A stretch of 64,000 nucleotides of DNA from Erysipelotrichales bacterium. GTDB taxonomy: Bacteria; Bacillota_I; Bacilli_A; RFN20; CAG-826. Location: the NCBI GenBank assembly GCA_022508535.1, contig JAFLUZ010000007.1, positions 6,731 through 70,730 of the forward strand, in the 5' to 3' direction. The position numbers and the translations under genes are program-made. Shown here in pieces: positions 16,135 through 61,743 of this stretch. The notes beneath the pieces are model-generated. The model did no database searches. It saw only the letters and a program-made list of their open reading frames with translations, and was not told the origin of the DNA. Numbering within the stretch: the first letter of the stretch is position 1; each line of letters opens with the position of its first letter.

Positions 16135-16356
16135 AAATCGTAGATAAAGACACGTATCTTAGAAGTACTGATTTAGCGAGATGACAAATGGTGAAAGGTC
16201 ATTATTAAGTATTTAAGATATATCACTTTGGAGAGATTATTCGATATGTAGAATAGTACGTTAATCGCGTTAAGATTATTGAGTGGTTTCTAAATTTTAG
16301 AAACAATTAAGGTGGTACCGCGTATATTACGTCCTTAAATTAAGGGCGTTTTTATT
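16135..16356 (+). promoter_or_regulatory. T-box leader (Ile specifier AUC at 16222-16224) controlling ileS
   Basis: AGCGAGA...GGTGAAAG stem I elements; T-box core AATTAAGGTGGTACCGCG (16307-16324); terminator CGTCCTT/AAGGGCG followed by T5. Confidence 0.9.
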
Positions 16357-28588: not shown

Positions 28589-28665
28589 GTCCTTGTAGCT
28601 CAGCTGGATAGAGCAACTGCCTTCTAAGCCGTAGGTCGGGAGTTCGAATCTCTCCAAGGACGCCA
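28589..28665 (+). tRNA. tRNA-Arg (anticodon UCU), CCA encoded
   Basis: Cloverleaf folded by hand: acceptor GTCCTTG/CAAGGAC, D arm GCTC/GAGC, anticodon loop CTTCTAA, T arm GGGAG-TTCGAAT-CTCTC. Own TTGAAA-16-TGaTAATAT promoter and its own terminator. Confidence 0.9.
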
Positions 28666-31189: not shown

Positions 31190-33505
31190 ATGGATAAAGA
31201 ATTAACTGCACCTCTTATTGTAACAAGAGGGCTTGTCACCTTTCCTGGATGTCCAACAACAATAGAGGCTATTAGAATACCAACTTTAGCAAGTATTGAA
31301 CTATCTAAAGAGTATGACAATAGCATTTTGGTTGTCTCACAAATTAATCCTTCAACAGATGAACCTGGATTAGAAGATTTTTACTATGTTGGTACTTTCT
31401 GCCGTGTAATTTCTGTAACAGAGTTAAAAGAATATACTCGAGTTAGAATTGATCCTAAATATAGAATTAAAATTAAATCTGTTTCCAAAGGTCCTGATGG
31501 TAAAAGTTTACTCGCTAATTATGTCGAGTTAAGCGATGTTTTAGGTGATCGCATTGAAGAAGAAGCGTTGATTCGTTCAATTATTCAAGAATTGGAGCAA
31601 ATGGCAGATTTACTTGATACTTTACCTAAGTCTTTTATTAATCAATTATCCAAGGGCGTATCATCCGTGCAACTTTCAAATTTACTTGCCCATAATATGC
31701 CTCTTACGATAAAAGCAAAACAAGAAATTTTAGAAACTTTGAATATTAATAGTCGTTTAGAGCTCCTTCTTAAGGCTATTAATCAAGAAAAAGAAGTTCG
31801 TGAAGTAGATAAGTTAATCACTGAGAAAATGCATAAATCGACAGAAAAGACACAAAGAGAATACATATTACGTGAAAAACTAAAAGCTATTCGAAGTGAA
31901 CTTGGTGAAGATGAAGATGCCGATGATTCTGAATCTAAAATATTGGAAAGATTAGAAAACAATCCTTATCCTGAAGAAATTAAAGCTAAAGTAAAATCAG
32001 AATTGAAACGTTATCAAATGATGCCACAAGCTTCATTAGAGAGCTCAATTATTAAAAATTACATTGATACTTTAATGAATTTGCCATGGTTTGAGTCAAC
32101 GGTTGATAATGATGATTTGAAGAACGCTCGTAAAATCTTAGATGAAGATCATTATGGCCTTGAAAAGGTTAAAGATCGTCTTATTGAATATTTAGCAGTC
32201 AAGAAAATGACTGGTAATTTAAAAGCACCTATTTTATGTCTTTATGGCGCACCAGGTGTCGGTAAAACATCTTTAGGAAGAAGTGTTGCCCGTGCCTTAA
32301 ATCGTAAATTCCATCGTATTGCTTTAGGTGGCATTTCCGATGAAGCAGAAATTCGTGGACATCGTCGCACCTATGTTGGTGCAATGCCAGGAAGAATTAT
32401 TGCTGGTATGCGTCGTGTTGGCGTTAACAATCCTGTATTTTTATTGGATGAAGTTGATAAACTTGCTAACTCATATAAAGGAGATCCTGCTTCTGCACTT
32501 TTAGAAGTTTTAGATCCAGAACAAAATGTTAAATTTAATGATAATTACGTTGAAGAAGCATTCGATTTATCTAATGTTTTATTCATTGCAACAGCAAATA
32601 ATATTGAAAATGTTCCAGGACCACTCCGTGATCGTTTGGAATTAATTGAAGTTAATTCCTATACAGTCATTGAAAAGCTTCATATCGCTAAGGATCATTT
32701 AATTAAGAAACAAGTAAATTTAGCGGGTTTAAAAGAATCACAAATTAAATTTGACGATAAGGCGATTCTTGCAATTATTTATAACTATACAAGAGAAGCA
32801 GGTGTGCGTGAATTAGAACGTAAAATTGCTTCAATTTGTCGAAAAGTAGTTGTTGAACTCCTTAATGATGAGAAAGTTAAGAAAGTTAATATTACCGAAA
32901 AGAAAGTTAAAGAATTATTAGGCATAGAAATATTTAATGAAGACAAACGTGAGAAAAAAGACCAAGTTGGTGTTGTGACAGGACTTGCTTATACTCAATA
33001 TGGTGGCTCAATTCTTCCAATTGAAGTAACTAATTATGTCGGAAAAGGAAGACTTGTTTTAACAGGTAGTCTAGGCGATGTTATGAAAGAATCTGCCACT
33101 ATCGCCCTTGACTATGTACGTGCAAATGCTAAAAAATACAAAATTGATGATGAAATCTTTGAAAAAAATGATATTCACATCCATTTCCCTGAAGGTGCAA
33201 TTCCAAAAGATGGACCATCCGCAGGTGTTGCAATTACAACTGCACTTATATCTTCTTTAACAAATCGCAAAGTTAAAGCTGATGTTGCAATGACTGGAGA
33301 AGTATCACTTCGCGGAAACGCTATTGCTATTGGTGGATTACGAGAAAAATCACTTGCAGCCTTAAGAAGTGGTATTAAAACAATTATCGTTCCAAAAGAT
33401 AACACACCACAAGTCAATGAACTTCCTAGTGAAGTTAAAGAGCAAATGAATATTGTCTTTATGACCTGTGTCGATGATGCACTTGAAGTGGCATTAAGAG
33501 GTTAA
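31190..33505 (+). CDS. lon: ATP-dependent Lon protease (LonA)
   Basis: LON N-domain, Walker A GAPGVGKTS, and protease motif PKDGPSAGV. Confidence 0.97.
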   Translation: MDKELTAPLIVTRGLVTFPGCPTTIEAIRIPTLASIELSKEYDNSILVVSQINPSTDEPGLEDFYYVGTFCRVISVTELKEYTRVRIDPKYRIKIKSVSKGPDGKSLLANYVELSDVLGDRIEEEALIRSIIQELEQMADLLDTLPKSFINQLSKGVSSVQLSNLLAHNMPLTIKAKQEILETLNINSRLELLLKAINQEKEVREVDKLITEKMHKSTEKTQREYILREKLKAIRSELGEDEDADDSESKILERLENNPYPEEIKAKVKSELKRYQMMPQASLESSIIKNYIDTLMNLPWFESTVDNDDLKNARKILDEDHYGLEKVKDRLIEYLAVKKMTGNLKAPILCLYGAPGVGKTSLGRSVARALNRKFHRIALGGISDEAEIRGHRRTYVGAMPGRIIAGMRRVGVNNPVFLLDEVDKLANSYKGDPASALLEVLDPEQNVKFNDNYVEEAFDLSNVLFIATANNIENVPGPLRDRLELIEVNSYTVIEKLHIAKDHLIKKQVNLAGLKESQIKFDDKAILAIIYNYTREAGVRELERKIASICRKVVVELLNDEKVKKVNITEKKVKELLGIEIFNEDKREKKDQVGVVTGLAYTQYGGSILPIEVTNYVGKGRLVLTGSLGDVMKESATIALDYVRANAKKYKIDDEIFEKNDIHIHFPEGAIPKDGPSAGVAITTALISSLTNRKVKADVAMTGEVSLRGNAIAIGGLREKSLAALRSGIKTIIVPKDNTPQVNELPSEVKEQMNIVFMTCVDDALEVALRG

Positions 33506-33506
33506 A

Positions 33507-34088
33507 ATGCTTAATTTTCGCTCAGCCACTTTTATAAAAAGTGCAACTTTAAAAAAAGATCGTCCTAACAAGAATCTTAAAGAAGTTCTATTTGTTGGAA
33601 GATCTAACGTTGGTAAATCATCACTTATTAACGCTCTATGTGATAATAAGTCATTATGTTTTACATCTTCAAAACCTGGTCATACTCGTCTATTAAATTA
33701 TTTTGAGATAAAAGATACTTTGTATCTTGTTGACGCCCCAGGATATGGTTATTCGAAGGCTGGTGGACGTCACGATGAACTCTTTGGTGCGATGATGGAA
33801 GACTATTTTGCAGAAAACGATAATCTTTCCTTAATTGTATTTTTGATGGATTCACGTCGTGAAGTGCGTGAAGAAGAAAAAGATTTATTAAATTTCTTTA
33901 ATGAAGAAAATATACCTTATGTAATTACTTTTACTAAAGCTGATAAACTTAATCAAAGTGAAAAAGCTAAGGCGATGAAAGAAGTGCATAAATTATCATC
34001 ATCAAATAATGCTGATATTATATTTACATCCATAAACAATAAAAACTCCATTGAAGAATTAAAAAAATATATCTCAAATCACATATAA
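33507..34088 (+). CDS. engB: ribosome biogenesis GTPase EngB/YsxC
   Basis: GRSNVGKSSLIN G1 motif, DAPGYG G3 motif, TKADK G4 motif; lies downstream of lon as in Bacillus. Confidence 0.93.
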   Translation: MLNFRSATFIKSATLKKDRPNKNLKEVLFVGRSNVGKSSLINALCDNKSLCFTSSKPGHTRLLNYFEIKDTLYLVDAPGYGYSKAGGRHDELFGAMMEDYFAENDNLSLIVFLMDSRREVREEEKDLLNFFNEENIPYVITFTKADKLNQSEKAKAMKEVHKLSSSNNADIIFTSINNKNSIEELKKYISNHI

Positions 34089-34195
34089 CATACGATTAAA
34101 TCGTATGTTTTTTTAATTAACCGACATCATAATTTAAAAAAACTCAGATTTTTCTGAGTTTTTAGAAAGCTTTATGTTTTTTTATTTCTAATCTA

Positions 34196-35119
34196 TTATT
34201 TAATTCTTTTAATAAGTCTATAAAAAGTGGCTAAAAACCAAGTGAAAGGGGCCAATACAGTTAATAAAAATTTGTGCTTATTAATATCTTTATAATATTT
34301 ATTAGCTTTTTGAAAATCTTTACTTGAAATAAAAAAGCAAAATGAGTATAAGAATATATTTTTATATGATTTACCATACAAATTTTCATTAATTACTTTG
34401 AATTTAAACTTGTATGTTGTAGGGTTAAATTGCTTTCTTGTTCTTTTTTTATCAGTTAAGTTTCCACCTTCTCCGACATAATATACTCGAACAACTTCAT
34501 TGGTATAATATGTTCCATACTTATTATCAATTTGATCCCATACTACATTTTCTGGAACATGTGAAACACATGGTACTAAAGGAAATTTATACATAGTTAA
34601 ATAGTCTCTTCTTTGTATACCAATTTTCTCACCTGAACATTTTGCTGCAATGCGTTCTGCTTCTTTCCAATTAAAATTATTTATATTGTCAGGATATTTA
34701 TCTCCGACAAAATCACCATGCTGTGTAATGCATCTTCCATGCACACACCAATATTGATCCCTTATATCCTCAGGGATATTGTAATATTTATTAACTAAAA
34801 ATCTTATTGAGTGAGGTAATAATTCATCATCTGCGTCGAGTTGAATTAGAAAAAATCCTTCAGCAATATCCCAAACAATGTTTAGGGCCGTGTGCTTACC
34901 ACCATTTTCCTTCTTGATATATTTAACAGGGCATGTGGCGTCTTTTATATATTCAGTAATTAACTCATCAGTTTTATCTATAGAACCATCGTTAACTATG
35001 ATGTGTTCAATATTAGGGTAATCAAGGTTTTTTATAGAATTAAATACTCTATAAAGAGTTTTTTCCCCGTTATAGACACATGTATATATTGAAACTAAAG
35101 GTAATTCATTGTCTTGCAT
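34196..35119 (-). CDS. family 2 glycosyltransferase with a C-terminal membrane segment
   Basis: GT-A signatures VNDGSIDKT and LDADDEL. Occupies the position of the hem operon in the Bacillus map. Confidence 0.8.
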   Translation of the reverse strand: MQDNELPLVSIYTCVYNGEKTLYRVFNSIKNLDYPNIEHIIVNDGSIDKTDELITEYIKDATCPVKYIKKENGGKHTALNIVWDIAEGFFLIQLDADDELLPHSIRFLVNKYYNIPEDIRDQYWCVHGRCITQHGDFVGDKYPDNINNFNWKEAERIAAKCSGEKIGIQRRDYLTMYKFPLVPCVSHVPENVVWDQIDNKYGTYYTNEVVRVYYVGEGGNLTDKKRTRKQFNPTTYKFKFKVINENLYGKSYKNIFLYSFCFFISSKDFQKANKYYKDINKHKFLLTVLAPFTWFLATFYRLIKRIK

Positions 35120-35324
35120 AATTGCATTATTTCTCCCATTAAAACTCTATTTAAACATATCTTATTTGCATTATTTTGTCAATTTACTCACTTACTTGTT
35201 TTTATAAAGAATATTTACGTCAAAACTCATTGTTAAACGGCATGTTGTCGCTATGTAACAAGATGCTCGATGCTTTTTTATCATAAAAAAAATTTAGATA
35301 AATACAATTATATTGGGTGATAAA

Positions 35325-36164
35325 ATGAACACGTATTATTTTGATAAAAAAATCAATTTAGAAGAAGCACCAGATAAGGTCAATTCTGTTGTGCTTGAAA
35401 ATTCATTCGATTATGTGCACTTAAACGATGGAGTCCATGTATCAGGAAAGATAGGAATTTCAGGTGAATGCAAATGCCAAGAACACGTTATTCCATTTGT
35501 GGATACTTTAGATGTTGATTTAATCGTGCCAAGTGAGAATATTGGTCATTTAAAAGGACTTAAATTAATCGTTGATAACTACGACTGCCACATTGTTGAT
35601 GATTCAATAAATTTTAGAATTAAATGTAATTTAAGTGGCTATGATGAAGACAAAGAGAATTTTGAGGTTGAAGAAGCTTTTAAAGAATTTGCAAGTGACA
35701 ATTCTGAAAAACTAATTCAAGAGTTTCGCGATACTTTAAGTGAAGAAGAAGCAAACAAGTTAGAAAACTTAATGAAAGATGATGTTGATGTTTTCGTCAA
35801 TAATTCCGAAGATGAGGTTCATACACTTGAAGAGGAAATTCCTGATTTGGCAGAAGAAGGAAATGAGGTATATCCTTTTATTCCTTATGAAGAAGAACCT
35901 GTTAAAGTAGATTCAACTGCTAATAACGAGGCAATTGAAAATGTTATAAATGAAACAAAAGCAATGAGCGTTGAAAAACCTGTAGAGCAAAATAGCCTAT
36001 TTGGCACTGAGCGTTTTGTTGTATTCTCAAGATTCTATCGCTGTGTTTCCGGTGATAGTTATGAAAGCATTGCTCTTAAATATGAGATTGATCCATATGA
36101 TTTAAAAGATTTAAATAAAAACAAGATCATTAGTGAAGGAACATTAATTCAAATTCCAAGATGA
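35325..36164 (+). CDS. spoVID: SpoVID-like spore coat morphogenetic protein (N-terminal SpoVID-type domain, acidic middle, C-terminal LysM)
   Basis: N-terminal pattern VHVSGKIGISGE...LDVDLIVPSENIGHLKGLKLIVDNYDCHIVDD resembles the SpoVID N-domain. C-terminal LysM (YRCVSGDSYESIALKYEI...GTLIQIP). Followed by ysxE. Confidence 0.65.
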   Translation: MNTYYFDKKINLEEAPDKVNSVVLENSFDYVHLNDGVHVSGKIGISGECKCQEHVIPFVDTLDVDLIVPSENIGHLKGLKLIVDNYDCHIVDDSINFRIKCNLSGYDEDKENFEVEEAFKEFASDNSEKLIQEFRDTLSEEEANKLENLMKDDVDVFVNNSEDEVHTLEEEIPDLAEEGNEVYPFIPYEEEPVKVDSTANNEAIENVINETKAMSVEKPVEQNSLFGTERFVVFSRFYRCVSGDSYESIALKYEIDPYDLKDLNKNKIISEGTLIQIPR

Positions 36165-37102
36165 AAAAAATAGTAGAAGCTAAGTATAATTTAAAAGTAA
36201 ATGCCATCATAAAAGTCACTAATAATACTTATAAATTGATGTGTGAAGAAGGTGCTTTTTTACTTAAATATCATAAAGATCAAACTCTTGAAAGTATTTT
36301 CGCACGCCTTTCAATGCTAAATAATGAAGTGTTTTTACTTCCTATTAGGTCATATAATGGTAATTTTCTTGAGAATTATGAAAACTTATACTTTTCTATT
36401 TATCCATTCTTACAAGATGAAGTCATGCTTAATAAAGATATAAGACTTCATTTTTATGTTAAAGCAATTGCAAATCTTCATTTATGGTCGCATTATAGTG
36501 TAAAAGTTAGTGATGGCTTTTTTAATGAGTCACTAGACTATTTAGAAAGACAATGCGATAATGCAGAATCATTAATTAAAAGTCGTATTGAAAGGATTGA
36601 AAGAGAAGAATATCACTCCCCATCAGATTGGTATTTTTTGATGAATTATGATCATTTAAGTAAGGCTATCGATGAGGCAAGAAGAAGGATTGATAATCTA
36701 GAAGAAGCCTGGAAAGAAGAAAGTAATCTTAATTTATCATTAACATATCAAAACTTTGATTACAGCCACATTTTAGTAAAACAAAATAAAATAGTTTCTC
36801 TTGATAAAATGGCAATTGCACCAGAAATATATGACTTAAGACAATTGTTTAATGAAGCATATATTTCACGTATTGATATTGCCACACTCATCAAAGAATA
36901 TATGGATATTAATCCTTTACAAAGTTATGAAAAAGAATGGTTGCTTGCCTTTTTATTCATACCAAACATAACTTATAATCGCAATGATATGGAAGATATT
37001 AGTGCACTTTTCAAGACACTTAGCAAACTTCATAGTGTCGAATCATTTGCAAATATTTTAAATGAAAACATTAATAGTGAAAGTGATACTTCACAAGAAT
37101 AG
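36161..37102 (+). CDS. ysxE: YsxE/CotS-family spore coat kinase-like protein
   Basis: ATGA overlap with spoVID; size and position match Bacillus ysxE. The kinase motifs are weak. Confidence 0.5.
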   Translation: MKKIVEAKYNLKVNAIIKVTNNTYKLMCEEGAFLLKYHKDQTLESIFARLSMLNNEVFLLPIRSYNGNFLENYENLYFSIYPFLQDEVMLNKDIRLHFYVKAIANLHLWSHYSVKVSDGFFNESLDYLERQCDNAESLIKSRIERIEREEYHSPSDWYFLMNYDHLSKAIDEARRRIDNLEEAWKEESNLNLSLTYQNFDYSHILVKQNKIVSLDKMAIAPEIYDLRQLFNEAYISRIDIATLIKEYMDINPLQSYEKEWLLAFLFIPNITYNRNDMEDISALFKTLSKLHSVESFANILNENINSESDTSQE

Positions 37103-37157
37103 TAAGTTATTACAATAAACATTTGCGATTATTGATAAATTAATCTATAATATGAGC

Positions 37158-37372
37158 GACGAAGATAAAGAGGAGTACTAGTTAAAGATATTTAGAGAGT
37201 TGTGCAATTGGTGAAAGCATAATTATCCTAAACTAAGAAGGTCGCTTTGGAGTCATAGAGGAATCTACGTTTACTCGCGTTAAGAGTTTGCTTAAGTGTG
37301 TATTTAACTATTAAATACAAATTAAGGTGGTACCGCGTATTTTACGTCCTTAAATTTTAAGGGCGTTTTTTA
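37158..37372 (+). promoter_or_regulatory. T-box leader (Val specifier GUC at 37241-37243) controlling valS
   Basis: TTGCGA-17-TATAAT promoter (37123-37151); AGAGAG...GGTGAAAG stem I; T-box AAATTAAGGTGGTACCGCG; terminator ACGTCCTTAA/TTAAGGGCGT followed by T6. Confidence 0.9.
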
Positions 37373-37393
37373 TTTTTAAAGGAGTTGATAAAT

Positions 37394-39997
37394 ATGGCAC
37401 TTTCCACAAGATATAACCCAAAAGAAGTTGAAAAGGGAAAGTATGAATTTTGGAAGAATAAGGGATATTTTAAAGCTGGAGAAGATTTAACAAAAACAAA
37501 ATTTTCAATGGTCATTCCACCTCCAAATGTCACAGGTAAATTACATTTAGGACACGCAATTAACACAACTATTCAAGATATAGTTGCGCGTTATAAAAAA
37601 GCAAAAGGCTATGATGTATTGTGGGTTCCTGGTATGGATCACGCTGGAATTGCAACTCAAGCTAAAGTTGAAGCAAAACTTAGAAGTGAAGGAATTTCTC
37701 GTTATGATTTAGGAAGAGAAAAATTCCTAGAAAAAGCTTGGGAATGGAAAAGAGAATATGCAGAATCGATACACGAACAATGGTCTGTTATGGGACTATC
37801 TCTTGACTATTCAAGAGAACGTTTTACTCTTGATGAAGGTTTAAATCGTGCAGTACGTAAAGTATTTGTCGATTTATATAACAAGGGATTAATTTATCAG
37901 GGCGAAAAAATTATTAACTGGGATCCTGTACAAAGAACTGCTTTAAGTAATATTGAAGTTATCTATAAGGATGACGAAGGTGAATTCTTTTATTTTAAAT
38001 ATCCTATTGTTGGCACTAATGAACATCTCATTGTTGCAACGACCCGTCCAGAAACAATGTTTGGAGATACTTGTGTTATCGTTAACCCAAAAGATGAAAG
38101 ATATAAGCATTTAATCGGGGAATACTGTATCAACCCTGCTAATGGCGATAAATTACCTATTTTAGGTGATGAATACGTTGATATTGAATTTGGAACAGGT
38201 GCAATGAAATGTACACCAGCACACGATCCAAATGACTTTAAAATCGGCGAAAAGTATGGCTTTAAACCAATCATTTGTATGAATGAAGACGCTACGATGA
38301 ATAGTGTATGTGGTAAATATGAAGGTTTAGATCGCTTTGAATGTCGAAAACAATTAGTAGAACAAATTAAACTTGATGGTAACTTAATTAAGATTGAAAA
38401 AATCACTCACCAAGTTGGACATTCTGAACGTAGTGATGCAGTTGTTGAACCATATTTATCAAAACAATGGTTTGTTAAGATGCGTCCTTTAGCTGATCAA
38501 GCTTTAAAAAATCAAACTGGTGATAAGGCAATTGCATTCTATCCAGATCGATTTAACAAAGTATTTACATCATGGATGGAAAAAGTTGATGACTGGTGTA
38601 TCTCCCGTCAACTTTGGTGGGGACATCGAATTCCAGCATATTATCATAAAGTAACTAAAGAAGTATTGGTGTCAGTCGAACCTCCAAAAGATATTGAAAA
38701 CTGGGTTCAAGATGAAGATATACTTGATACATGGTTCTCATCTGCGCTTTGGCCGTTTACTACTTTAGGTTGGCCAGAGAAGACAAGTGACTTTGAAAGA
38801 TATTTCCCATTAGATTTAATGGTAACAGCATATGATATTATTTTCTTCTGGGTTTCCAGAATGATTTTCCAAAGCCTTGAATTCACGAAAGAGCCACCAT
38901 TTAATAAAGTGTTAATTCATGGTATTATTCGTGATTCACAAGGAAGAAAAATGTCTAAATCTTTAGGTAATGGTGTAGATCCAATAGATGTTATTGAAAA
39001 ATATGGTGCGGACGCACTTAGATATTTCATTACGACAACTGGTACACCTGGACAAGATTCACGTTACATTGAAGAAAAAGTTGAAAGTAGTGCTAACTAT
39101 ATCAATAAGATTTGGAACGCTGCTCGTTTCGTTTTAGGTGTTTTACCTAGTGAATTTAAAGAAAGAGATATAAAAGCTCAAGAATTAAATCCACTTGATA
39201 AATATATAATGGCTAAATTAGAAACTACTATTGAATCAGTTGTCTATAACATGGATCGTTATGAGTTAGGTAATGCTTCAACACATTTATATAACTTCGT
39301 TTATGATGATTTCTGTTCATGGTATTTAGAGATGGCAAAAGTCACTCTTAACGGCGATAATGAATTAGCTAAGGAAAATACATATCAAGTTCTCTTTAAA
39401 GTCTTAAAAGCGGTTATTTTGATGATTTATCCATATACTCCATTTGTAAGTGAAGAACTTTATCTAAATTTACCAGAACATAAAGAATCAATTATGCTTG
39501 AAGATTATCCAATTGTTGATAATTCTTTTATGGATAAGAAAGCTATTGAAGAAGTAGAAACTTTATTTAAACTAATTAAAGATATTCGTAATTACAAAGT
39601 TGAAAATGAATTAGCACCAAATGCCAAGATTAAATTACATGTCTTTGATAAAGCTGAGGTATTTAAAAAATATCTTCCATATTTAGAAAGATTTACTTTT
39701 GCTAGTGAGATAATATTTGAAAAAGAAGAAGATAACTTAAAAGATTTCAACGTCTTTATTTACGATATTGCTCAATTTGGTGTAGAAGATAACATCGATA
39801 AAGAAACAATTTTAGCTAAACTCAATGCTGAATTAAGTATTGTAGAAAAAGAAATTTCAAGAGCGGAAGGAATGTTATCTAATCCTAACTTTGTTTCTAA
39901 AGCACCAGAGAGCAAAGTAAACGCTGAAAAAGAAAAACTTGAAAATCATAAAAATAGAAAAGCAATTTTACTTGAAAAAATTCAAAAATTAAAATAA
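37394..39997 (+). CDS. valS: valyl-tRNA synthetase
   Basis: HLGH and KMSKS motifs; C-terminal coiled coil. ATG 37394 has an AAAGGAG SD. Confidence 0.98.
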   Translation: MALSTRYNPKEVEKGKYEFWKNKGYFKAGEDLTKTKFSMVIPPPNVTGKLHLGHAINTTIQDIVARYKKAKGYDVLWVPGMDHAGIATQAKVEAKLRSEGISRYDLGREKFLEKAWEWKREYAESIHEQWSVMGLSLDYSRERFTLDEGLNRAVRKVFVDLYNKGLIYQGEKIINWDPVQRTALSNIEVIYKDDEGEFFYFKYPIVGTNEHLIVATTRPETMFGDTCVIVNPKDERYKHLIGEYCINPANGDKLPILGDEYVDIEFGTGAMKCTPAHDPNDFKIGEKYGFKPIICMNEDATMNSVCGKYEGLDRFECRKQLVEQIKLDGNLIKIEKITHQVGHSERSDAVVEPYLSKQWFVKMRPLADQALKNQTGDKAIAFYPDRFNKVFTSWMEKVDDWCISRQLWWGHRIPAYYHKVTKEVLVSVEPPKDIENWVQDEDILDTWFSSALWPFTTLGWPEKTSDFERYFPLDLMVTAYDIIFFWVSRMIFQSLEFTKEPPFNKVLIHGIIRDSQGRKMSKSLGNGVDPIDVIEKYGADALRYFITTTGTPGQDSRYIEEKVESSANYINKIWNAARFVLGVLPSEFKERDIKAQELNPLDKYIMAKLETTIESVVYNMDRYELGNASTHLYNFVYDDFCSWYLEMAKVTLNGDNELAKENTYQVLFKVLKAVILMIYPYTPFVSEELYLNLPEHKESIMLEDYPIVDNSFMDKKAIEEVETLFKLIKDIRNYKVENELAPNAKIKLHVFDKAEVFKKYLPYLERFTFASEIIFEKEEDNLKDFNVFIYDIAQFGVEDNIDKETILAKLNAELSIVEKEISRAEGMLSNPNFVSKAPESKVNAEKEKLENHKNRKAILLEKIQKLK

Positions 39998-40018
39998 AAT
40001 TACGCTTTTTGAGTAATC

Positions 40019-40050
40019 GACCTCCTAAATTATTATAGGAGGTCTTTTTT
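40019..40050 (+). terminator. valS intrinsic terminator; its 3' arm is the SD of the downstream peptide ORF
   Basis: Perfect 8-bp stem GACCTCCT / AGGAGGTC with a 10-nt loop and T6 (40045-40050). The ATG follows immediately at 40051. Confidence 0.8.
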
Positions 40051-40227
40051 ATGAGAAAACTATCTGACAATGAACTAAATGAAGTTGAAGGGGGAGAAGC
40101 AATTACCATAACTGCAATTATGGCAGTTCTTGCTGTAGCACTTGTTGCTGTTATTTGTTATCGCCTATTTATGTCTTCTAAAGGTGGAGCAACTTTACCA
40201 GGTGGCTTTAAATTTACGTGGGATTGA
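40051..40227 (+). CDS. 58-aa double-glycine-leader peptide (bacteriocin/pheromone-type leader plus one TM helix): MRKLSDNELNEVEGG-EAITITAIMAVLAVALVAVICYRLFMSSKGGATLPGGFKFTWD
   Basis: AGGAGG SD 8 nt upstream. The leader matches the LSxxELxxVxGG consensus at all key positions. Stop TGA overlaps the radC ATG. Not in the ORF track. Confidence 0.6.
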   Translation: MRKLSDNELNEVEGGEAITITAIMAVLAVALVAVICYRLFMSSKGGATLPGGFKFTWD

Positions 40228-40904
40228 TGGGACAAATAAAAGATATTGTTTGTTGTGAAAGACCACGAGAAAAAGCTCTCAAACTCGGAATTAATAATTT
40301 GTCCGATATTGAGTTATTTGCGCTTATTATTCAATCTGGTGGTAAAAACAATTCGGTTTTAAATATCGCTTATAATTTACTTGATAAATCTAATGGCTTG
40401 AGTGGTTTTCTTGAATATGATTATGAGAAACTAACAGCAATTAAAGGAATAAATAAAGTCACTGCAATAAAATTATTGGCGATCAAAGAGTTAATGCAAC
40501 GCTTTGAATATCTAAAAGTAGCTAGTAAGGCGCATATTACTAATTCTAAAGATATATATAAGATGTTTCGCATTAAATACTTTGCAAAAAACAATGAAGA
40601 AATTTTGATTCTATTATTAAATCACACAAATCAAATAATTAAAGAAGAGGTGATTGCAAGCGGTTCTATTAATGAGGTAAGCATCGATTTTCGCTTAATA
40701 TTTTGTGATGTATTAAAAAATAATGCCCATAAATTTATATTAATCCATAATCATCCGACAGGTGATTCAGTTCCTTCAAATGAAGATATATACTACACCA
40801 ATGAGATAAAGAAAAAAGCGAAAGGATTAGGTCTTAAATTATTAGATCATATCATTATTGGTAAAGATAATTATTTTTCTTTTAAGGATAATGCTCTTAT
40901 ATGA
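40227..40904 (+). CDS. radC: RadC-like JAB/MPN+ domain protein
   Basis: N-terminal HhH-like ERPREKALKLG...ELFALIIQSG and JAMM motif HNHPTGDSVPSNED. Start taken as ATG 40227 (tgATGg), though the GTG at 40218 remains possible. Confidence 0.85.
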   Translation: MGQIKDIVCCERPREKALKLGINNLSDIELFALIIQSGGKNNSVLNIAYNLLDKSNGLSGFLEYDYEKLTAIKGINKVTAIKLLAIKELMQRFEYLKVASKAHITNSKDIYKMFRIKYFAKNNEEILILLLNHTNQIIKEEVIASGSINEVSIDFRLIFCDVLKNNAHKFILIHNHPTGDSVPSNEDIYYTNEIKKKAKGLGLKLLDHIIIGKDNYFSFKDNALI

Positions 40905-40950
40905 CACTATTCGACATCGGATAGTGTTTTAATTTGAACGAGGTGATTTT

Positions 40951-41445
40951 GTGGAAACGTTACTTATTAATAATGAAGATGAATCATTAGCTATTTCCAC
41001 TATAAACAAATACTTAGAAGAAAGAATATTTGATAAACGTAAAAAAGAAGTTTGTTTAGTTTTTTCTAAAAAGCCATCAGTTAATTTTTTTAAATTGATT
41101 TTACTTTCATTCTATGATTACAAAAGTGCATATTTAAAAATGATTAAGTATGAAAAAAATACTAAGTGTAACTTAGAAAAAGTTATCATTCATAGTGGCG
41201 AAGATGTCTCTTTTAACGAACCGAAAATAATCGTAGGTAATGTCCATAAAGGTGCAACTCTTCGCATCAATACAAATTTAGTTTTTATTGGTGAAATAAA
41301 AGGAACTATATACTTAGACAGTGACAAATCATCTATTTACGCTGATAAATTTACTAATGCTGTATTTGTGGATCGCTATGGAAGAAGAAAAGAATTTTCA
41401 GGAGTTAACTATTTAATGTCTTTTGAAGAAATGGAGGCAATGTAA
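40951..41445 (+). CDS. minC: septum site-determining protein MinC (short, 164 aa)
   Basis: C-terminal beta-helix repeats (IIVGNVHKGATLRINTNLVFIGEIKGTIYLD). 1-nt overlap with minD. GTG start with a GAGGTGA SD. Confidence 0.7.
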   Translation: METLLINNEDESLAISTINKYLEERIFDKRKKEVCLVFSKKPSVNFFKLILLSFYDYKSAYLKMIKYEKNTKCNLEKVIIHSGEDVSFNEPKIIVGNVHKGATLRINTNLVFIGEIKGTIYLDSDKSSIYADKFTNAVFVDRYGRRKEFSGVNYLMSFEEMEAM

Positions 41446-42209
41446 TGGCAAGAGTAATTGTTGTAACAAGTGGAAAAGGTGGAGTAGGTAAAACCACAGT
41501 CACCGCATTAATAGGAAGAGAATTAGCACGGAATGGAAAAAAAGTAGTCCTTATTGACGCTGATTTAGGACTTAAAAATCTTGATGTTGTTTTGGGCTTA
41601 GAATCCCGTGTTGTATATGATTTAGAAGATGTAGTTAAAGGAAGAGCAACTCTAAGACAAGCCTTAGTGCAAGATAAATTTGTGCCTACACTTTTTTTAC
41701 TACCTGCTTGGATGCGAATCAATGCTACAGACATTGATGAAAACTATATGAATGCAATTATAAATAATCTTCAAAATGAATGTGACTTTATCTTAATTGA
41801 CTCTCCCGCAGGTATTGAAAAAGGATTTTTTAATGCAATAAGGAATGCTAAAGAAGCAATTGTTGTTTTAACTTTAGACAAAACATCATTACGTGATGCT
41901 GATAAAGTTGTTGGCTTATTAAAGAATAATCAAATAAATGATATTAAACTTGTTGTTAATAAGAATAGCAATTCGAAAACACAACTTACAATTGCTGATG
42001 TTAAACGTATAATGGATGTCCCTCTTATTGGCGTATTAAAAGACGATAAAGAAGTACAGGGATTACAAAATTATGGAACGTTAATAAGTAGTAACTCTGA
42101 TCTTGATGTGGAAATTAAAAACATGACCAACAAACTATTGGGGATTGAAGATATAGTTACCAAAAAGTCTCCTCTATCAAGATTCATTAAAAGTGTGTTT
42201 AAGTCATAA
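41445..42209 (+). CDS. minD: septum site-determining ATPase MinD
   Basis: Deviant Walker A SGKGGVGKTT; C-terminal amphipathic helix. Confidence 0.95.
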   Translation: MARVIVVTSGKGGVGKTTVTALIGRELARNGKKVVLIDADLGLKNLDVVLGLESRVVYDLEDVVKGRATLRQALVQDKFVPTLFLLPAWMRINATDIDENYMNAIINNLQNECDFILIDSPAGIEKGFFNAIRNAKEAIVVLTLDKTSLRDADKVVGLLKNNQINDIKLVVNKNSNSKTQLTIADVKRIMDVPLIGVLKDDKEVQGLQNYGTLISSNSDLDVEIKNMTNKLLGIEDIVTKKSPLSRFIKSVFKS

Positions 42210-42226
42210 AATTTAATGGTGATACT

Positions 42227-42769
42227 ATGAGCGAAATAAATGAAATTAGAAAAAGAATTAATAAACCAAATAAACATAATAGACTATATATACTATGTAT
42301 TAGTGCATTATTATTAATGGCTATTGTAATGGGCACAATGATTTATGCGAAATCAAACGCCGATGCAAAAATATTTGGTGTTCCGTTAGCAGAAATTAAT
42401 CATAAGTTTGATAGTTTTTTTGGTGGATTATTCAAAAGTAATGTAACAAGTAAAGATGATGATCAAACAGTTGGTGCCACACCAAAGTATACATATTTAG
42501 GTAACAATTATTATCAAAGCGAAGATCAAAGCGTACCTGCACTTATTGATGGAATTGTTAATAATGTCACGGAAAACGATAGTGGCTATTATGTATTAGT
42601 CAGTTATAAAAATGGAGTCACAGCTCAATACTTTGAATTAACAGATGTCATTGTTAAAGTTAATGATAATATTAAAACAAGTGATAGCATTGGTATATAC
42701 GAAGAGAAATTCAAAGCATTGTTTATGAGAGGAAATGACGTAATTAAATATGCAGAAATCTTTAACTGA
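42227..42769 (+). CDS. spoIVFA: SpoIVFA-like protein (TM segment plus degenerate LytM/M23 domain)
   Basis: N-terminal basic region and TM segment. C-terminal M23-like pattern (ALIDGIV...GYYVLVSYKNGVTAQYFELTDVIVKVNDNI...IG). Overlaps spoIVFB by 20 nt. Confidence 0.6.
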   Translation: MSEINEIRKRINKPNKHNRLYILCISALLLMAIVMGTMIYAKSNADAKIFGVPLAEINHKFDSFFGGLFKSNVTSKDDDQTVGATPKYTYLGNNYYQSEDQSVPALIDGIVNNVTENDSGYYVLVSYKNGVTAQYFELTDVIVKVNDNIKTSDSIGIYEEKFKALFMRGNDVIKYAEIFN

Positions 42770-43496
42770 AATTTCATTTCATCCCTTAACAGTAATCTAC
42801 GTCGCTTTAAGTTTAATACTTGGGCGATTTTCTTTTGTTTTTGCCTTATTTGTGATAGCGTTAGTTCATGAGCTATTTCATGTTTTTGCAGCGCGTATTT
42901 TTAACCTTAAAATAAGTGAAATAAAGATTTTGCCAATTGGTTGTTACGCAAAGATTTCGAATTTGGAAAACGCTAATAGAGGTGCGCAAATAATAGTTCT
43001 ATTATTAGGCCCGTTATCATTTTTCTTTACAATGGCTATAATTACATTTCTCTATCGCATTGATATAATTTCAATATATGGGTATCGTGAATATAATGAG
43101 ATTAATTTATTTATGATGATTGTCAATTTATTACCAATTTTTCCGTTTGATGGAGGAAGAATTTTAAAGATATTTTTAAGTTCTTTATTTAGTGAGAAGA
43201 AGTCATTAATTGCTTCATCTTTAATTGGTCTTATTGTATCCACTATATTTGTCTTACGTTTGCTACAAATTGGACAATATGTATTTGCACTTTTCATTAT
43301 GTTCTATGCAATAAAAAATGTTATTTGCATTAAAAGAGATTATAAGGAATTTTTATTAATGCGATACATATCAAATGACTATAAAAGATATAAAGTAAAA
43401 ATAAATGAAAGAAAAGAAATATATCGATATGCACATAATTACTATTTAAAAGATAGAAAAATATATCCTGAAGAAAAAGTATTTAAAAATTTATAA
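42750..43496 (+). CDS. spoIVFB: site-2 metalloprotease SpoIVFB (pro-sigma-K processing)
   Basis: HELFH (HExxH) in a TM helix and the NLLPIFPFDGG motif. minD-spoIVFA-spoIVFB order as in Bacillus. Confidence 0.8.
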   Translation: MQKSLTEISFHPLTVIYVALSLILGRFSFVFALFVIALVHELFHVFAARIFNLKISEIKILPIGCYAKISNLENANRGAQIIVLLLGPLSFFFTMAIITFLYRIDIISIYGYREYNEINLFMMIVNLLPIFPFDGGRILKIFLSSLFSEKKSLIASSLIGLIVSTIFVLRLLQIGQYVFALFIMFYAIKNVICIKRDYKEFLLMRYISNDYKRYKVKINERKEIYRYAHNYYLKDRKIYPEEKVFKNL

Positions 43497-43547
43497 ATAA
43501 TTTAAAAAAATATATGAATATTTAATAAGTTAATATATAATATTAAC

Positions 43548-43630
43548 GTAGAAGGTCCTAGCGCAATCTAGTGACTAACTCCTACAGCTTGTCAGCCGCC
43601 TAAGATTGTGAGTCCGAGAGCGGCTTTTTT
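43548..43630 (+). ncRNA. candidate antitoxin-like sRNA, copy 2 (orphan)
   Basis: 70/78 identity to 14141-14218 by hand alignment. TATAAT (43536-43541) sits within 1 nt of the same offset from the conserved block as in copy 1. Ends in GCCGC...GCGGC followed by T6. Confidence 0.5.
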
Positions 43631-43635
43631 AATTT

Positions 43636-43689
43636 CTATCTCTTTCTATTATTTCTAATATCTAGGATAACTGTAACTACAATACTTAC
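43636..43689 (-). pseudogene. decayed 3' remnant of the type I toxin ORF (...VSIVVTVILDIRNNRKR*)
   Basis: Homologous to the last ~17 codons of the 14223-14318 ORF. Homology stops at about 43690. No in-frame start codon or SD. Confidence 0.5.
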
Positions 43690-43834
43690 AGGTGTAACAA
43701 ATTTAAAAAGCGGTAAAACTAATAAAAAATTTAAAAATATTTCCTATGAAATGATTTAGATAATAGTAAAGGAGTTCAATTATTGAATAAATTTATGAAA
43801 ATTAATTGACATATATTATATATATGTGATAAAT

Positions 43835-43935
43835 TATCTTCGTTGCGGCCTCACTAGCTACAACCGCATAGAAAAGGTAACTAACTATTATGACCTTAAT
43901 AGCGAGTCATTAGTGAAAAATTTGAATTTTCAGGA
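43835..43935 (+). promoter_or_regulatory. possible ribosomal-protein L21 leader upstream of rplU
   Basis: TTGACA (43806-43811) -18- TAAATT promoter with a TGTG -16 element. About 100-nt structured 5' UTR (TGCGG...CCGCA, CTATTA...TAATAG). Called by position only. Confidence 0.35.
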
Positions 43936-43944
43936 GGTGTATCT

Positions 43945-44253
43945 ATGTACGCAATTATCGAAACAGGCGGTAAACAAGTCAAAGTCGAAGTTGGACAAAA
44001 AATCTTCGTCGAAAAATTAGAAGTAGAAGCTGGTGCTTCCTACACATTTGACAAAGTATTACTCGTTGCTGACAAGAAAACAGTTGTTGGTACTCCATAC
44101 GTTGAAGGTGCTACAGTTGTTGCTAAAGTTGAAAAACAAGGTAAGAGTAAGAAAATCCGCGTCTTCAAGTACAAGAACAAGGCAAATGAACGTAAGACTA
44201 TCGGTCATCGTCAACCATATACTTGCTTAGTAATTGAAGCAATTAATGCATAA
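43945..44253 (+). CDS. rplU: 50S ribosomal protein L21
   Basis: [14 protein letters not shown]... is a canonical L21 N-terminus. Confidence 0.98.
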
Positions 44254-44255
44254 TT

Positions 44256-44555
44256 ATGATTAAAGTAGAATTTAAATATGTTGATCAAAAGTTTACATAT
44301 TTAAAAGTTAAAGGACATGCAAATAGTGCAGAATATGGTCATGACCTAATATGCGCTGGTGTATCGTCAATCGTAACTGGTGCGCTCAATAATATTGATG
44401 CCAAAAATTACGATATAGAGATTAAAGAAGGGCTAGTAATAGTCCAAACAAAAAATGAGATTACTACTCATGACGAGATAGTTTTTGAAACAATGTATAC
44501 GCAATTAAAAACCATTGAAGAAAGCTATCCATCTAACATAAAAATTATTAAGTAA
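44256..44555 (+). CDS. prp: ribosomal-processing cysteine protease Prp (YsxB)
   Basis: GHA...DLICAGVSS His/Cys dyad; lies between rplU and rpmA. Confidence 0.9.
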
Positions 44556-44575
44556 GAAAGAGGTGCATCGCAGTG

Positions 44576-44863
44576 ATGTTTAAGTTAAATCTTCAACTCT
44601 TCGCATCTAAGAAGGGTGTTGGATCTACAAAAAACGGACGTGATTCAGAATCAAAACGTCTCGGAGCTAAAAAAGCTGATGGTCAATATGCTACAGCAGG
44701 CTCAATTATTTATCGTCAACGCGGAACAAAAATCTATCCAAGTGTCAATACGATGCGTGGTGGAGATGATACAATTTTTGCAACAAAGTCTGGAATCGTA
44801 AGATTTGAGCGTGTCGGCAAAGATAAAAAACGTGTATCCGTTTACGAAGTTGAAGCTAAGTAA
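44576..44863 (+). CDS. rpmA: 50S ribosomal protein L27 with an N-terminal propeptide
   Basis: [10 protein letters not shown]|[15 protein letters not shown]; the Prp cleavage motif is present. Confidence 0.97.
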
Positions 44864-44872
44864 AAATTTTAT

Positions 44873-44897
44873 AGCCTGACTAGTTCAGGCTTTTTTT
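44873..44897 (+). terminator. intrinsic terminator after rpmA
   Basis: AGCCTGA / TCAGGCT stem followed by T7. Confidence 0.8.
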
Positions 44898-44925
44898 AAT
44901 AATAATATTAAGTGAGGTGAAAACC

Positions 44926-46203
44926 ATGTTTATCGATAAAGCAACTATTGAAGTGCGTGCTGGTAATGGCGGTAATGGAATGATTGCCTTCCATCGTGAA
45001 AAATATATCTCCCGTGGTGGTCCAAGTGGGGGTAATGGCGGAAGAGGCGGTTCTATTATTTTTCGTGCTTCTAAAAGTGTTTCTACATTAATGAACTTCC
45101 GTCATTCAAAATGCATTATTGCCAAAGATGGCGAAAAAGGCATGGGAAAAAATCAGTACGGAAAAAGTGCCGATGATGTCGTTGTTGAACTTCCAATTGG
45201 TACTGTAGTGTTTGATGAAAAAACAAAGGAATTTATTTGTGATTTATCAGAAGATGGTAAAGAATTTGTTGTCGCTCATGGTGGTCGTGGAGGAAGAGGT
45301 AATGCTTGCTTTAAATCACCAGTTAATCGTACTCCTCGAATTGCTGAAAATGGTATACCTGGTGAAAAGAAAAGATTAATTCTTGAATTAAAACTTTTAG
45401 CTGATGTTGGATTTGTTGGTTTCCCAAGTGTTGGAAAATCGACATTACTAAGCATTATTTCAGCAGCAAAACCAGAAATTGGTGATTATGATTTTACAAC
45501 TATTGTTCCAAATCTTGGTGTAGTTAGAGTAGGAGATGGAAGAAGCTTTGTTGCGGCTGATTTACCTGGTTTAATTGAGGGTGCTCACCTAGGAAAAGGA
45601 TTAGGCTTACAATTTTTACGTCATATTGAAAGATGCCGTGTTATCGTCCATATTATCGATATGTCAGGTGTAAGAGATCCTTATGATGACTATAAAAAAA
45701 TTAATAAAGAGCTTAAAGAATATGGTTATGGTTTAAGTAAAAGACCTGTTATAATCGTTGCTTCTAAAATGGATGAAGAAGGAGCAGAAGAACGATTAAA
45801 AGCACTTAAAAAACATATTAGAAAACCAATCATTGGAATATCAGCATTAACAAATGAAAATGTTGATTTGCTATGTTATAAAATCGCTGATTTACTTGAT
45901 AAGACACCAATGTTTAATTTATATAATGAAGATAACATTGAAGCAGGTGTTAAAGTATATGAAGCTAAAGCAGATGAAAATGATGAATTTGAAATCTTTA
46001 GAAAAGATAATCATACATTTGTTATTAAAGGTGAAAGAATTGAAAGAACTTATAGTTTAATTAATCTTTCAACTGATGAAGGAATCTTAAAATTATTAAA
46101 CTATATGCGAAAAATTGGTGTTGATGATCGCTTAAGAATGATGGGCGCAAAAGATGGAGACACAGTCATTCTTTGTGACTTTGAATTCGAATATATTGCC
46201 TAG
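44926..46203 (+). CDS. obg: GTPase Obg
   Basis: Gly-rich Obg fold (GGNGGRGGS), G1 motif GFPSVGKST and a C-terminal OCT-like domain. ATG 44926 has a GAGGTGA SD. Confidence 0.96.
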   Translation: MFIDKATIEVRAGNGGNGMIAFHREKYISRGGPSGGNGGRGGSIIFRASKSVSTLMNFRHSKCIIAKDGEKGMGKNQYGKSADDVVVELPIGTVVFDEKTKEFICDLSEDGKEFVVAHGGRGGRGNACFKSPVNRTPRIAENGIPGEKKRLILELKLLADVGFVGFPSVGKSTLLSIISAAKPEIGDYDFTTIVPNLGVVRVGDGRSFVAADLPGLIEGAHLGKGLGLQFLRHIERCRVIVHIIDMSGVRDPYDDYKKINKELKEYGYGLSKRPVIIVASKMDEEGAEERLKALKKHIRKPIIGISALTNENVDLLCYKIADLLDKTPMFNLYNEDNIEAGVKVYEAKADENDEFEIFRKDNHTFVIKGERIERTYSLINLSTDEGILKLLNYMRKIGVDDRLRMMGAKDGDTVILCDFEFEYIA

Positions 46204-46214
46204 GAGAAAACAAT

Positions 46215-46952
46215 ATGAAACTTGAAGAATATTTAAAAGTTATTGAACGATTTTTAAAAGATAAACTTGTTGAAACTAAAATGTCTGGTTATGTCTTAGG
46301 TGTATCAGGGGGAATAGATTCTGCGCTTGTTTTAGCATTAGCTAAAAGAGCAGTAGGTGAAAAGATATTTGGACTTATTATGCCTTGTGAATCGCATGAA
46401 TCTGACGCTAACGACGCAATTGAATTATTAGAAAAGTTTAATGTCGAATATATAACAGTTGATTTAACTAGTACTTTTCAAAAAATGGCTATTGAATTAG
46501 AAAAAAGTTATGGTCATCCTCTTGATAAAATGGCAAGAGCGAATATTAAAGTTCGCTTAAGAATGGTTACTTTATATGCAATTGGACAAACTCGTAATTC
46601 TTTAGTACTTGGTACTGATAATTTAGACGAGGCTTATACAGGTTACTTTACAAAATATGGCGATGGTGGAGTAGATTTACTCCCTATTGCTGAATTAACT
46701 AAGTCTGAAGTATTTGAAGCAAGCCGAATCTTAGGTGTTACAGAGGCGATATTGAATCGTAAACCTAGTGCTGGTTTATTTGTTGGACAAACTGATGAAA
46801 TGGAACTTGGTGTTACATATGAGGAATTAGATAATTACCTTTTAGGTAAAGAAGTGCCGGAATCAGTTAAGGTGCGTATTGAGCATCTCCATAAAGTATC
46901 AGCACATAAAAGAGAGCCAATACCTAAGCCAACAAAATTTATAAGAGACTAG
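46215..46952 (+). CDS. nadE: NH3-dependent NAD+ synthetase
   Basis: PP-loop SGGIDSA; size about 245 aa. Confidence 0.9.
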   Translation: MKLEEYLKVIERFLKDKLVETKMSGYVLGVSGGIDSALVLALAKRAVGEKIFGLIMPCESHESDANDAIELLEKFNVEYITVDLTSTFQKMAIELEKSYGHPLDKMARANIKVRLRMVTLYAIGQTRNSLVLGTDNLDEAYTGYFTKYGDGGVDLLPIAELTKSEVFEASRILGVTEAILNRKPSAGLFVGQTDEMELGVTYEELDNYLLGKEVPESVKVRIEHLHKVSAHKREPIPKPTKFIRD

Positions 46953-60092: not shown

Positions 60093-60159
60093 TTTAAGAT
60101 TACAAATACTTGACTTCGTATTATTGACTTTATAATATTTTAGATATTATAATATTTTT

Positions 60160-60370
60160 GTCAACGAAGTAGATTAGTTTAGTAAACTTTTATAGAGAGA
60201 ATTTGTAAGGTGGAAAAATTCAAAGCAAACTAAATGGACACTATGGAGACACTTGTTTGAAATTAGTAGAATAAGCGTATTAGCGGCGTTAACGCAAAAT
60301 GAGTGCATAAATTTTTTATGAACTAAGGTGGTACCGCGTGTTTAACGTCCTTAGAATGGACGTTTTTTTA
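60160..60370 (+). promoter_or_regulatory. T-box leader of the hisS-aspS operon (specifier GAC at 60237-60239, overlapping CAC at 60239-60241)
   Basis: TTGACT-18-TATAAT (60124-60153); AGAGAGA...GGTGGAAA stem I; T-box AACTAAGGTGGTACCGCG (60321-60338); terminator AACGTCC/GGACGTT followed by T7. Confidence 0.88.
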
Positions 60371-60388
60371 TTTTTAAGGAGGATATTT

Positions 60389-61732: not shown

Positions 61733-61743
61733 AAGGTGAATTT

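Follow-up and report, generated by a model that had tools for sequence, protein, structure and literature searches.

The subject of this analysis is a 64,000-nucleotide stretch of an Erysipelotrichales bacterium, on contig JAFLUZ010000007.1, referred to below as the window, with positions counted from its first letter. Between valS and radC it carries a 58-codon open reading frame (ORF) with an ATG start (40051-40227, forward strand), the product of which is MRKLSDNELNEVEGGEAITITAIMAVLAVALVAVICYRLFMSSKGGATLPGGFKFTWD. This peptide represents an undescribed family of small proteins, and its position constitutes a new gene association for RadC, a long-standing orphan enzyme. The explanation favoured here, which has about an even chance of being correct, is that a single-pass membrane protein and RadC make up a translationally coupled two-gene module, in which the peptide acts as a partner, tether or regulator of RadC. 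The first-pass annotation of the same stretch had instead been struck by the resemblance of the first 15 residues to the double-glycine leaders of exported peptides, and had speculated that RadC, as a JAMM/MPN+ protein, might either cleave the peptide after Gly-Gly or be held by it at the membrane.

The basic description of the locus is confirmed by the sequence and the ORF list: the 58-codon ORF, the AGGAGG Shine-Dalgarno (SD) sequence 8 nt 5' of its ATG and the TGATG overlap, through which the peptide's TGA stop (40225-40227) and the radC ATG (40227) have an A in common, are all present. There is a second in-frame start candidate for radC, a GTG at 40218; both candidates fall inside the range of coupling distances seen across species, and no strong SD of radC's own is found in the window sequence.

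The ORF is a genuine gene, and a family of relatives exists. A word-indexed search recovered seven homologues with identities of 55-84%. Among these is a called hypothetical protein in the Erysipelotrichales metagenome-assembled genome (MAG) GCA_022508525.1; the description of the gene as unannotated is thus accurate for the track used in the first pass, but not for this relative. When 1.84 billion representatives of 50%-identity clusters were searched with a profile, 72 relatives emerged; 42 of them had E<1e-10, and nearly all were 55-75 residues in length. Orthologous loci numbered 66 in species-representative genomes and a further 80 on metagenome contigs. By Nei-Gojobori counts, the proportion of synonymous differences between orthologues (pS) is near saturation at 0.5-0.78. 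In the part of the peptide following the leader-like segment, the corresponding nonsynonymous proportion (pN) is 0.05-0.25 and omega is roughly 0.03-0.26, while the leader-like segment is less constrained, with an omega of 0.13-0.6. Recurrence of the gene 5' of radC and purifying selection, which had been put forward as a check to be made in relatives, were both found, the first among the 66 and 80 loci and the second in the low pN between orthologues. Furthermore, the C-terminal motif P-G-G-F-K-F-x-W is encoded by every synonymous codon, which indicates selection on the protein rather than on an embedded RNA signal; the idea that the invariant P-G-G serves as an embedded SD for radC is ruled out on the same grounds.

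As far as sampling goes, the family is restricted to uncultured Bacilli from gut, rumen and digesters, and the large clade that has the module consists of Erysipelotrichales-like and 'Mollicutes'-like MAGs from the gut and the rumen. No Pfam family or NCBIfam model is common to the 44 members scanned, with the best matches in both cases being chance hits of single members, and the literature on RadC, small membrane proteins, JAMM substrates and double-glycine peptides yielded no account of a radC-coupled peptide gene. Two loci come from bins labelled Phocaeicola dorei and Prevotella sp. (L017 and L022), yet have the lon-engB-valS-peptide-radC synteny of Bacilli; these labels probably reflect binning contamination. 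Three longer predicted proteins, P0044 (144 residues), P0045 (184 residues) and P0018 (135 residues), contain the transmembrane (TM) helix and tail of the peptide as their C-terminal part, the N-terminus of P0044 being phage tail-fibre-like and that of P0045 polytopic membrane in character. They could be genuine fusions or the product of gene calls that run on.

The peptide gene is tightly coupled to radC throughout a deep clade. The gene directly downstream of the peptide is radC in approximately 60 of the 65 species loci that could be evaluated, and in 75 of the 75 evaluable metagenome loci of a distant 'PGGW' subfamily, members of which are almost entirely without the N-terminal Gly-Gly; the two samples together give about 135 of 140 loci. 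The coupling through stop/start overlap proposed for the window extends to its relatives, as in 57 of 58 species the radC start is found -14 to +6 nt from the peptide stop. Junctions that recur are the TGATG or TAATG overlap, an ATG or GTG at -10 that spans the Trp codon, and a TTG at -14. The pair is also kept where valS is not adjacent (L019, L021, L027, L033, L042, L044 and L057), including cases in which valS is distant or on the other strand (L042, L044 and L057). The gene upstream of the pair is then VanZ-like (L019 and L027), an unknown gene (L021) or yqfD (L033), and the other neighbours at the rearranged loci are heterogeneous, with no exporter among them. In all, the pair survives at least four different rearrangements away from valS. 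Over the same 93 non-redundant peptide-RadC pairs, median identity is 55% for the peptide and 36% for RadC.

Three lineages retain the peptide gene without radC next to it: L020/L024, with the order valS-peptide-minC; L059, with peptide-DegV; and L002-L005/L070/L071, with valS-peptide-rplU. At the loci of this last group (e.g. L002, 5950-6150), radC and minCD are not present and rplU is directly next; the ancestral ATG is now ATT, with AGGAGG and its 8-nt spacing unchanged, a remnant of the leader is still in frame, and an internal ATG gives a 49-residue product beginning MKIVCGEAIT, with C-G at the junction. The possibility raised by this gene order, that the peptide is tied to valS and not to radC, is ruled out by the 66 species loci and by the 75/75 metagenome loci. 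Two further observations concern the surroundings of radC in relatives: in one MAG, an AbiEii-type toxin gene of a type IV toxin-antitoxin system is found between radC and rplU (L054, 8915-9748, reverse strand), and at L042 and L044 a PreP-like M16 peptidase of 962 residues lies tail-to-tail with radC.

Conservation within the peptide, as judged from column counts across 67 species, is strongest in the C-terminal tail. At the junction that follows the N-segment, Gly at -1 is found in 63 of 65 sequences and Glu at +1 in 54, followed by A-I-T (Ile in 48, Thr in 60) and a helix of 21-22 residues that is rich in small amino acids. Y-[RK]-L-F-x-S stands directly after the helix and precedes G-x-x-x-[IL]-P-G-G-F-K-F-x-W, which is kept at 63-64 of 64 (P 63, G 63, G 64, F 63, K 63, F 63 and W 63). 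The C-terminal consensus is Y-R-L-F-x-S-x-K-G-x-x-x-L-P-G-G-F-K-F-x-W, in a family of 57-61 residues. An AlphaFold2 (AF2) model built with the family alignment has a predicted local distance difference test score (pLDDT) of 81.8, and consists of a short helix (residues 6-11), a long helix (16-41, pLDDT 90-95) and a beta-hairpin (45-49/53-57) with P-G-G as its turn. Foldseek comparison of this model with the PDB found nothing at E<=0.001. It is not a beta-grasp domain with a C-terminal Gly-Gly, as the double glycines of the peptide are N-terminal (14-15) or internal (51-52). The net charge is -1.30 for the N-segment and +1.94 for the C-segment, and is lower at the N-terminal side in 62 of 67 species. 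Given the positive-inside rule, an acidic N-terminus and a basic C-terminus lead to the prediction of an N-out/C-in topology, which would leave the 'leader' outside and put the conserved tail in the same compartment as RadC, the cytoplasm.

Almost all bacteria encode RadC, which is a member of the late competence and sigma-M envelope-stress regulons. The protein encoded in the window scores 201 bits with the equivalog model NF000642 (TIGR00608), above its cutoff of 180. It has the N-terminal domain PF20582 and the JAB domain PF04002 (127 bits), and matches PDB entry 2qlc at 1.8e-23. The JAMM motif HNHPTGDSVPSNED is intact at residues 174-187, as the first-pass annotation had noted, and the strict form HxHx7SxxD is present in 89 of 93 partner RadCs, whatever the dipeptide of the peptide. 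The last residue of the motif is Glu and not Asp in the RadCs of L113, L145 and L149 (HNHPSG..LPSKGE), and in that of L134 even a relaxed form of the motif finds no match; the partner peptides of all RadCs without the strict motif have a P-G junction. According to a 2025 review (PMC11981726), the function of RadC is still unknown, as it has been since RadC lost its 'DNA repair' assignment (Attaiech 2008, as cited there). As radC of Bacillus subtilis shares a transcript with mreBCD-minCD, made from a sigma-M envelope-stress promoter (PMC6827917), a role for RadC close to the membrane is plausible.

The pattern that first drew attention to the peptide holds in the window, but not as the defining feature of its family. 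The window peptide has the leader consensus at the positions originally listed, and passes the 15-position model TIGR01847 (bacteriocin_sig) with 16.9 bits against a cutoff of 15.7. It just fails TIGR03949 (class IIb lactobin A/cerein 7B; 20.7 against 21.5 bits) and clearly fails Pfam Bacteriocin_IIc (13.9 against 27.1 bits). The scan with double-glycine hidden Markov models suggested in the first pass thus gives a mixed result, as the score of this one peptide with TIGR01847 is not shared by the family: at E<=0.01, TIGR01847 is reached by 1 of 44 diverse members, the window peptide alone, and TIGR03949 by 3 of the 44. Gly at -2 is found in 37 of 65 sequences of the species subset; with the 'PGGW' subfamily added, the 93 non-redundant pairs include 33 with GG (35%), 31 with VG, 13 with TG, 8 with SG and 5 with PG. 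The Gly at -2 is the residue that the peptidases of peptidase-containing ATP-binding cassette transporters (PCATs) need most. In this family, -2 is the position that varies, the opposite of what is seen in PCAT substrates. The N-terminal GG is not conserved, and the leader model here matches a housekeeping small protein in a state specific to its lineage. A prepilin or Flp-like class III signal was also considered and is ruled out, as there is no Glu at +5, no Flp motif and no Pfam Flp match, and the leader is acidic.

The earlier verdict that this is not a bacteriocin locus is upheld by the surrounding genes. No C39/PCAT exporter is encoded among the large ORFs of the window, which specify IleS, MutS2, UvrC, SecDF, RecJ, RelA, HisS, AspS, a MurJ-like protein and a Big_2 protein, and the 64-kb window has no immunity or two-component genes either; neither these nor a PCAT recur in the 6-8 kb on either side of the 146 loci. 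In 66 species the peptide gene has a fixed, core location between valS and radC, with housekeeping genes as its neighbours. Because the gene is core, syntenic and under strong purifying selection throughout a class-level clade, unlike strain-variable bacteriocin loci, and has a variable GG and no export or immunity genes nearby, it is unlikely that the peptide is a PCAT-exported bacteriocin or pheromone. A class IIb-like secreted peptide that relies on a C39 transporter encoded elsewhere in the genome would account for the TIGR01847 match, for the near miss with TIGR03949 and for the L-[ST]-x-x-E-[LM]-x-x-[IV] pattern kept by the family; nevertheless, for the reasons above, such a role seems very improbable. 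The likeness to class II bacteriocins and ComC-type pheromones (TIGR01847, PF10439 and TIGR03949) lies in an N-segment of about 15 residues, with a pattern running from L(-12) to G(-1), ahead of a small hydrophobic peptide. The differences are that the radC-coupled peptide is conserved in what would be the mature part, not in the leader, and that this part is a TM helix followed by a beta-hairpin, with flanking charges of the kind usual in a protein that stays in the membrane. The rhythm of the N-segment is kept across the 67 species (L/M at -12, S/T at -11, E at -8, M/L at -7 and I/V at -4), and remote evolutionary kinship with double-glycine leaders, suggested by this pattern, is possible.

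In the favoured explanation, the peptide would insert N-out/C-in, in the manner of small YidC-type substrates, and its conserved tail would face the cytoplasm, where it could bind, tether or regulate RadC at the membrane. Translational coupling would set a 1:1 stoichiometry of peptide to RadC, and a hairpin resembling a valS terminator and sequestering the SD would gate expression of the pair. Small N-out/C-in proteins inserted by YidC, such as the Pf3 coat protein, and bitopic regulators offer a parallel, in that they combine a length of about 58 residues with an acidic N-tail, one TM segment and a basic C-flank; bitopic anchors or regulators of a cytoplasmic partner are similar in being translationally coupled to a soluble protein. 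The peptide has no sequence relationship to any of these, however, and its insertion, topology and partner binding are inferred. A membrane tether, the second of the alternatives originally offered, is a candidate role that fits the data better than cleavage after Gly-Gly. Several observations weigh against a RadC-directed role. Retention of the peptide by three lineages with no radC next to it, as judged from the flanks, may point to a function independent of RadC; adjacency is found largely within a highly syntenic backbone, such that the loci are not all independent observations; the topology is predicted from charges only; and tethering leaves the leader-like pattern of the N-segment (-12 L, -8 E, -7 L/M, -4 I/V and -1 G) unexplained. 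A RadC-independent function is a serious rival. The peptide would then be a small envelope or membrane protein in its own right, which shares a transcript and coupled translation with radC as part of a compact syntenic region. The C-terminal motif is intact in all three lineages without an adjacent radC, the peptide is more conserved than RadC, and the housekeeping backbone lon-engB-valS-...-rplU-obg is rigid, all of which would suit a mere operon neighbour. By contrast, such a relationship does not readily explain why the pair outlasts the rearrangements that separate it from valS, why the -14 to +6 nt junction is kept while RadC diverges down to approximately 25-30% identity, or why radC is adjacent at every evaluable locus of the distant subfamily. 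On this balance, a neighbour with no involvement of RadC is unlikely, though it stays well within consideration.

That the peptide is instead a dedicated physiological substrate of RadC, cut either at the N-terminal junction or after the cytoplasmic P-G-G, is improbable. In the JAMM enzymes that have been characterised, the site of action follows the Gly-Gly at the C-terminus of a beta-grasp domain (PMC11981726). The pairs Rpn11/ubiquitin, HvJAMM1/SAMP, Mec+/CysO, QbsD/QbsE and Cap3 resemble the present one in that the gene for a JAB protein with an intact HxHx7SxxD motif lies beside that for a small protein with Gly-Gly, but the radC-coupled peptide has no beta-grasp fold, its GG is not C-terminal, and its N-terminal GG is not conserved; moreover, no E1- or E2-like genes are found in the neighbourhoods of the species and metagenome loci. 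Cleavage before or during membrane insertion, after Gly15 at G/E-A-I-T (the slash marking the cut), would be in keeping with the conserved adjacency and coupling, with the JAMM motif intact in 89/93 partners, and with the conservation of Gly at -1, Glu at +1 and A-I-T beyond the apparent needs of the start of a TM segment. The three lineages without adjacent radC are also all non-GG (AG, PG and CG), a weak signal from three events. Yet RadC is unchanged in lineages with VG, TG, SG or PG in place of the minority GG, the AF2 model of the peptide contains no beta-grasp, and the predicted N-out topology puts the site across the membrane from RadC. The first-pass proposal of deubiquitinase-like cleavage after the N-terminal GG is therefore not supported, and cutting at this site is distinctly improbable. 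The alternative site has the attraction that no double glycine of the family other than that of P50-G51-G52 is truly invariant (63-64 of the 64 species that could be scored). This one is conserved at the amino acid level, is predicted to be cytoplasmic and lies 6-7 residues from the C-terminus, and the JAMM motif of RadC is intact. RadC might then trim F-K-F-x-W-x, as happens to QbsE through QbsD or to ubiquitin precursors through deubiquitinases. However, the place of P-G-G as the turn of the predicted beta-hairpin is a sufficient structural reason for its invariance, F-K-F-x-W is just as invariant, which would not be expected of a discarded tail, and neither a beta-grasp nor an E1-like gene nearby accompanies it; trimming of the tail is very improbable. 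Least probable of all is a regulatory upstream ORF, translated only to deliver ribosomes to the radC start. The overlap or abutment of stop and start everywhere and the lack of a strong SD for radC in the window would suit a functionless peptide, but amino acid conservation above that of RadC with saturated synonymous sites, and retention of the peptide where radC is not adjacent, would not.

The SD of the peptide gene is itself part of a conserved structure. In the window, AGGAGG forms the 3' arm of a 9-bp stem (40019-40044) with five GC pairs, which is followed by T6 and then the ATG; a terminator scan identifies the same positions as a candidate intrinsic terminator, a GC-rich stem-loop with a U-run. 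Of 67 species, 59 have the SD inside such a stem and 35 have a T-run in addition. The two base pairs at the outer end of the stem, outside the SD core, have changed on both sides with pairing kept in 20-21 of 50 sequences, and the inner arm tracks changes from AGGAGG to AGGGGG. The hairpin is weak or absent where the peptide-radC pair is not downstream of valS. The location of the SD within the stem across species, the T-run, the covariation and this weakness away from valS together suggest that the hairpin most likely acts both as the valS terminator and as a brake on translation initiation in read-through transcripts. In its GC-rich 9-bp stem, its T-run and the SD in its 3' arm, it is similar to terminators that overlap the ribosome-binding site of the next gene and to SD-sequestering hairpins, but differs in that the T-run is found in only about half of the species here. 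A type I toxin, as a hydrophobic peptide with a sequestered SD might suggest, is unlikely in view of the core synteny and the downstream coupling, no search for an antisense RNA having been made. At some loci the stem-loop has a promoter-like appearance (TTGAxx-16-TATAAT), with a -10-like hexamer in the loop and a TTGAxx -35 box 16 nt upstream: TTGAGT-16-TATTAT at 40009-40036 in the window, and TTGATT-16-TATAAT at the hairpin of L015 (approximately 7961-7990). Transcription from a candidate promoter within this terminator-like hairpin would begin within the SD or immediately downstream of it.

The features of the locus are collected in the table below.

Features of the valS-peptide-radC locus in the window, with the evidence for each
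Feature	Coordinates	Strand	Evidence
T-box leader of valS	37153..37354	+	Rfam RF00230, 111 bits vs gathering score 93
valS (valyl-tRNA synthetase), usual upstream neighbour of the peptide gene	37385..39997	+	ORF list, synteny
Hairpin GACCTCCTA/TAGGAGGTC, 9 bp, loop 8, then T6	40019..40050	+	Terminator scan, fold z = -3.5
AGGAGG SD of the peptide gene, within the 3' arm of the hairpin	40037..40042	+	Sequence; motif and spacing conserved across loci
N-segment, residues 1-15, acidic, double-glycine-leader-like L-S-x-x-E-L-x-x-V-x-G-G, predicted extracytoplasmic	40051..40095	+	TIGR01847, column counts, charge
G/E-A-I-T junction (invariant) and single TM helix, residues 16-41	40096..40173	+	AF2, conservation
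C-terminal tail S-S-K-G-G-A-T-L-P-G-G-F-K-F-T-W-D and stop, predicted cytoplasmic	40174..40227	+	Column counts, AF2, charge
radC, UPF0758 N-terminal helix-hairpin-helix domain and RadC-like JAB domain	40227..40904	+	NF000642, PF04002, PF20582, PDB 2qlc
JAMM/MPN+ metal-binding motif HNHPTGDSVPSNED, RadC residues 174-187	40746..40787	+	Sequence

Orthologues of the valS gene match Pfam tRNA-synt_1, Anticodon_1 and Val_tRNA-synt_C. Its T-box leader is one of three in the window, the others being at 16132-16339 (ileS, 16376-19123) and 60155-60355 (hisS/aspS, 60338-63480), and a tRNA gene is found at 28589-28662. A second terminator-like hairpin, of 11 pairs with a weak T-run, lies at 40903-40928, directly 3' of radC and 5' of minC (40951). 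Across 31190-46952, the gene order parallels that of B. subtilis, lonA-ysxC ... spoVID/ysxE-like-valS ... radC-minCD-spoIVFA/FB-like-rplU-prp-rpmA-obg-nadE, with the spoIVFA/FB-like pair represented by M23 (42227-42769) and M50 (42750-43496) genes, and with maf and mreBCD not present between radC and minC. This order suggests a backbone of the spore-former type. The RadC of the window is orthologous to RadC/YsxA of Bacillus and Streptococcus (radC-mreBCD-minCD; sigma-M and late competence regulons), and the regions are alike in the backbone valS ... radC-minCD ... rplU-obg and the link to envelope genes. They are unlike in that maf and mreBCD are missing here and a peptide gene precedes radC; to our knowledge, no such gene has been described upstream of radC in the Bacillus and Streptococcus model organisms.

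These results carry a caution for genome mining, as a small protein that passes a double-glycine leader model need not be a bacteriocin. Were the peptide to prove a substrate of RadC, it would be the first substrate, and reveal the first activity, for the RadC family, and would represent a membrane-anchored, JAB-processed peptide system without a ubiquitin-like fold. More generally, a conserved peptide coupled to radC is a concrete lead on a protein of unknown function: it points to RadC acting either at the membrane or on a partner that is anchored there, and supplies P-G-G-F-K-F-x-W as a candidate RadC-binding motif.

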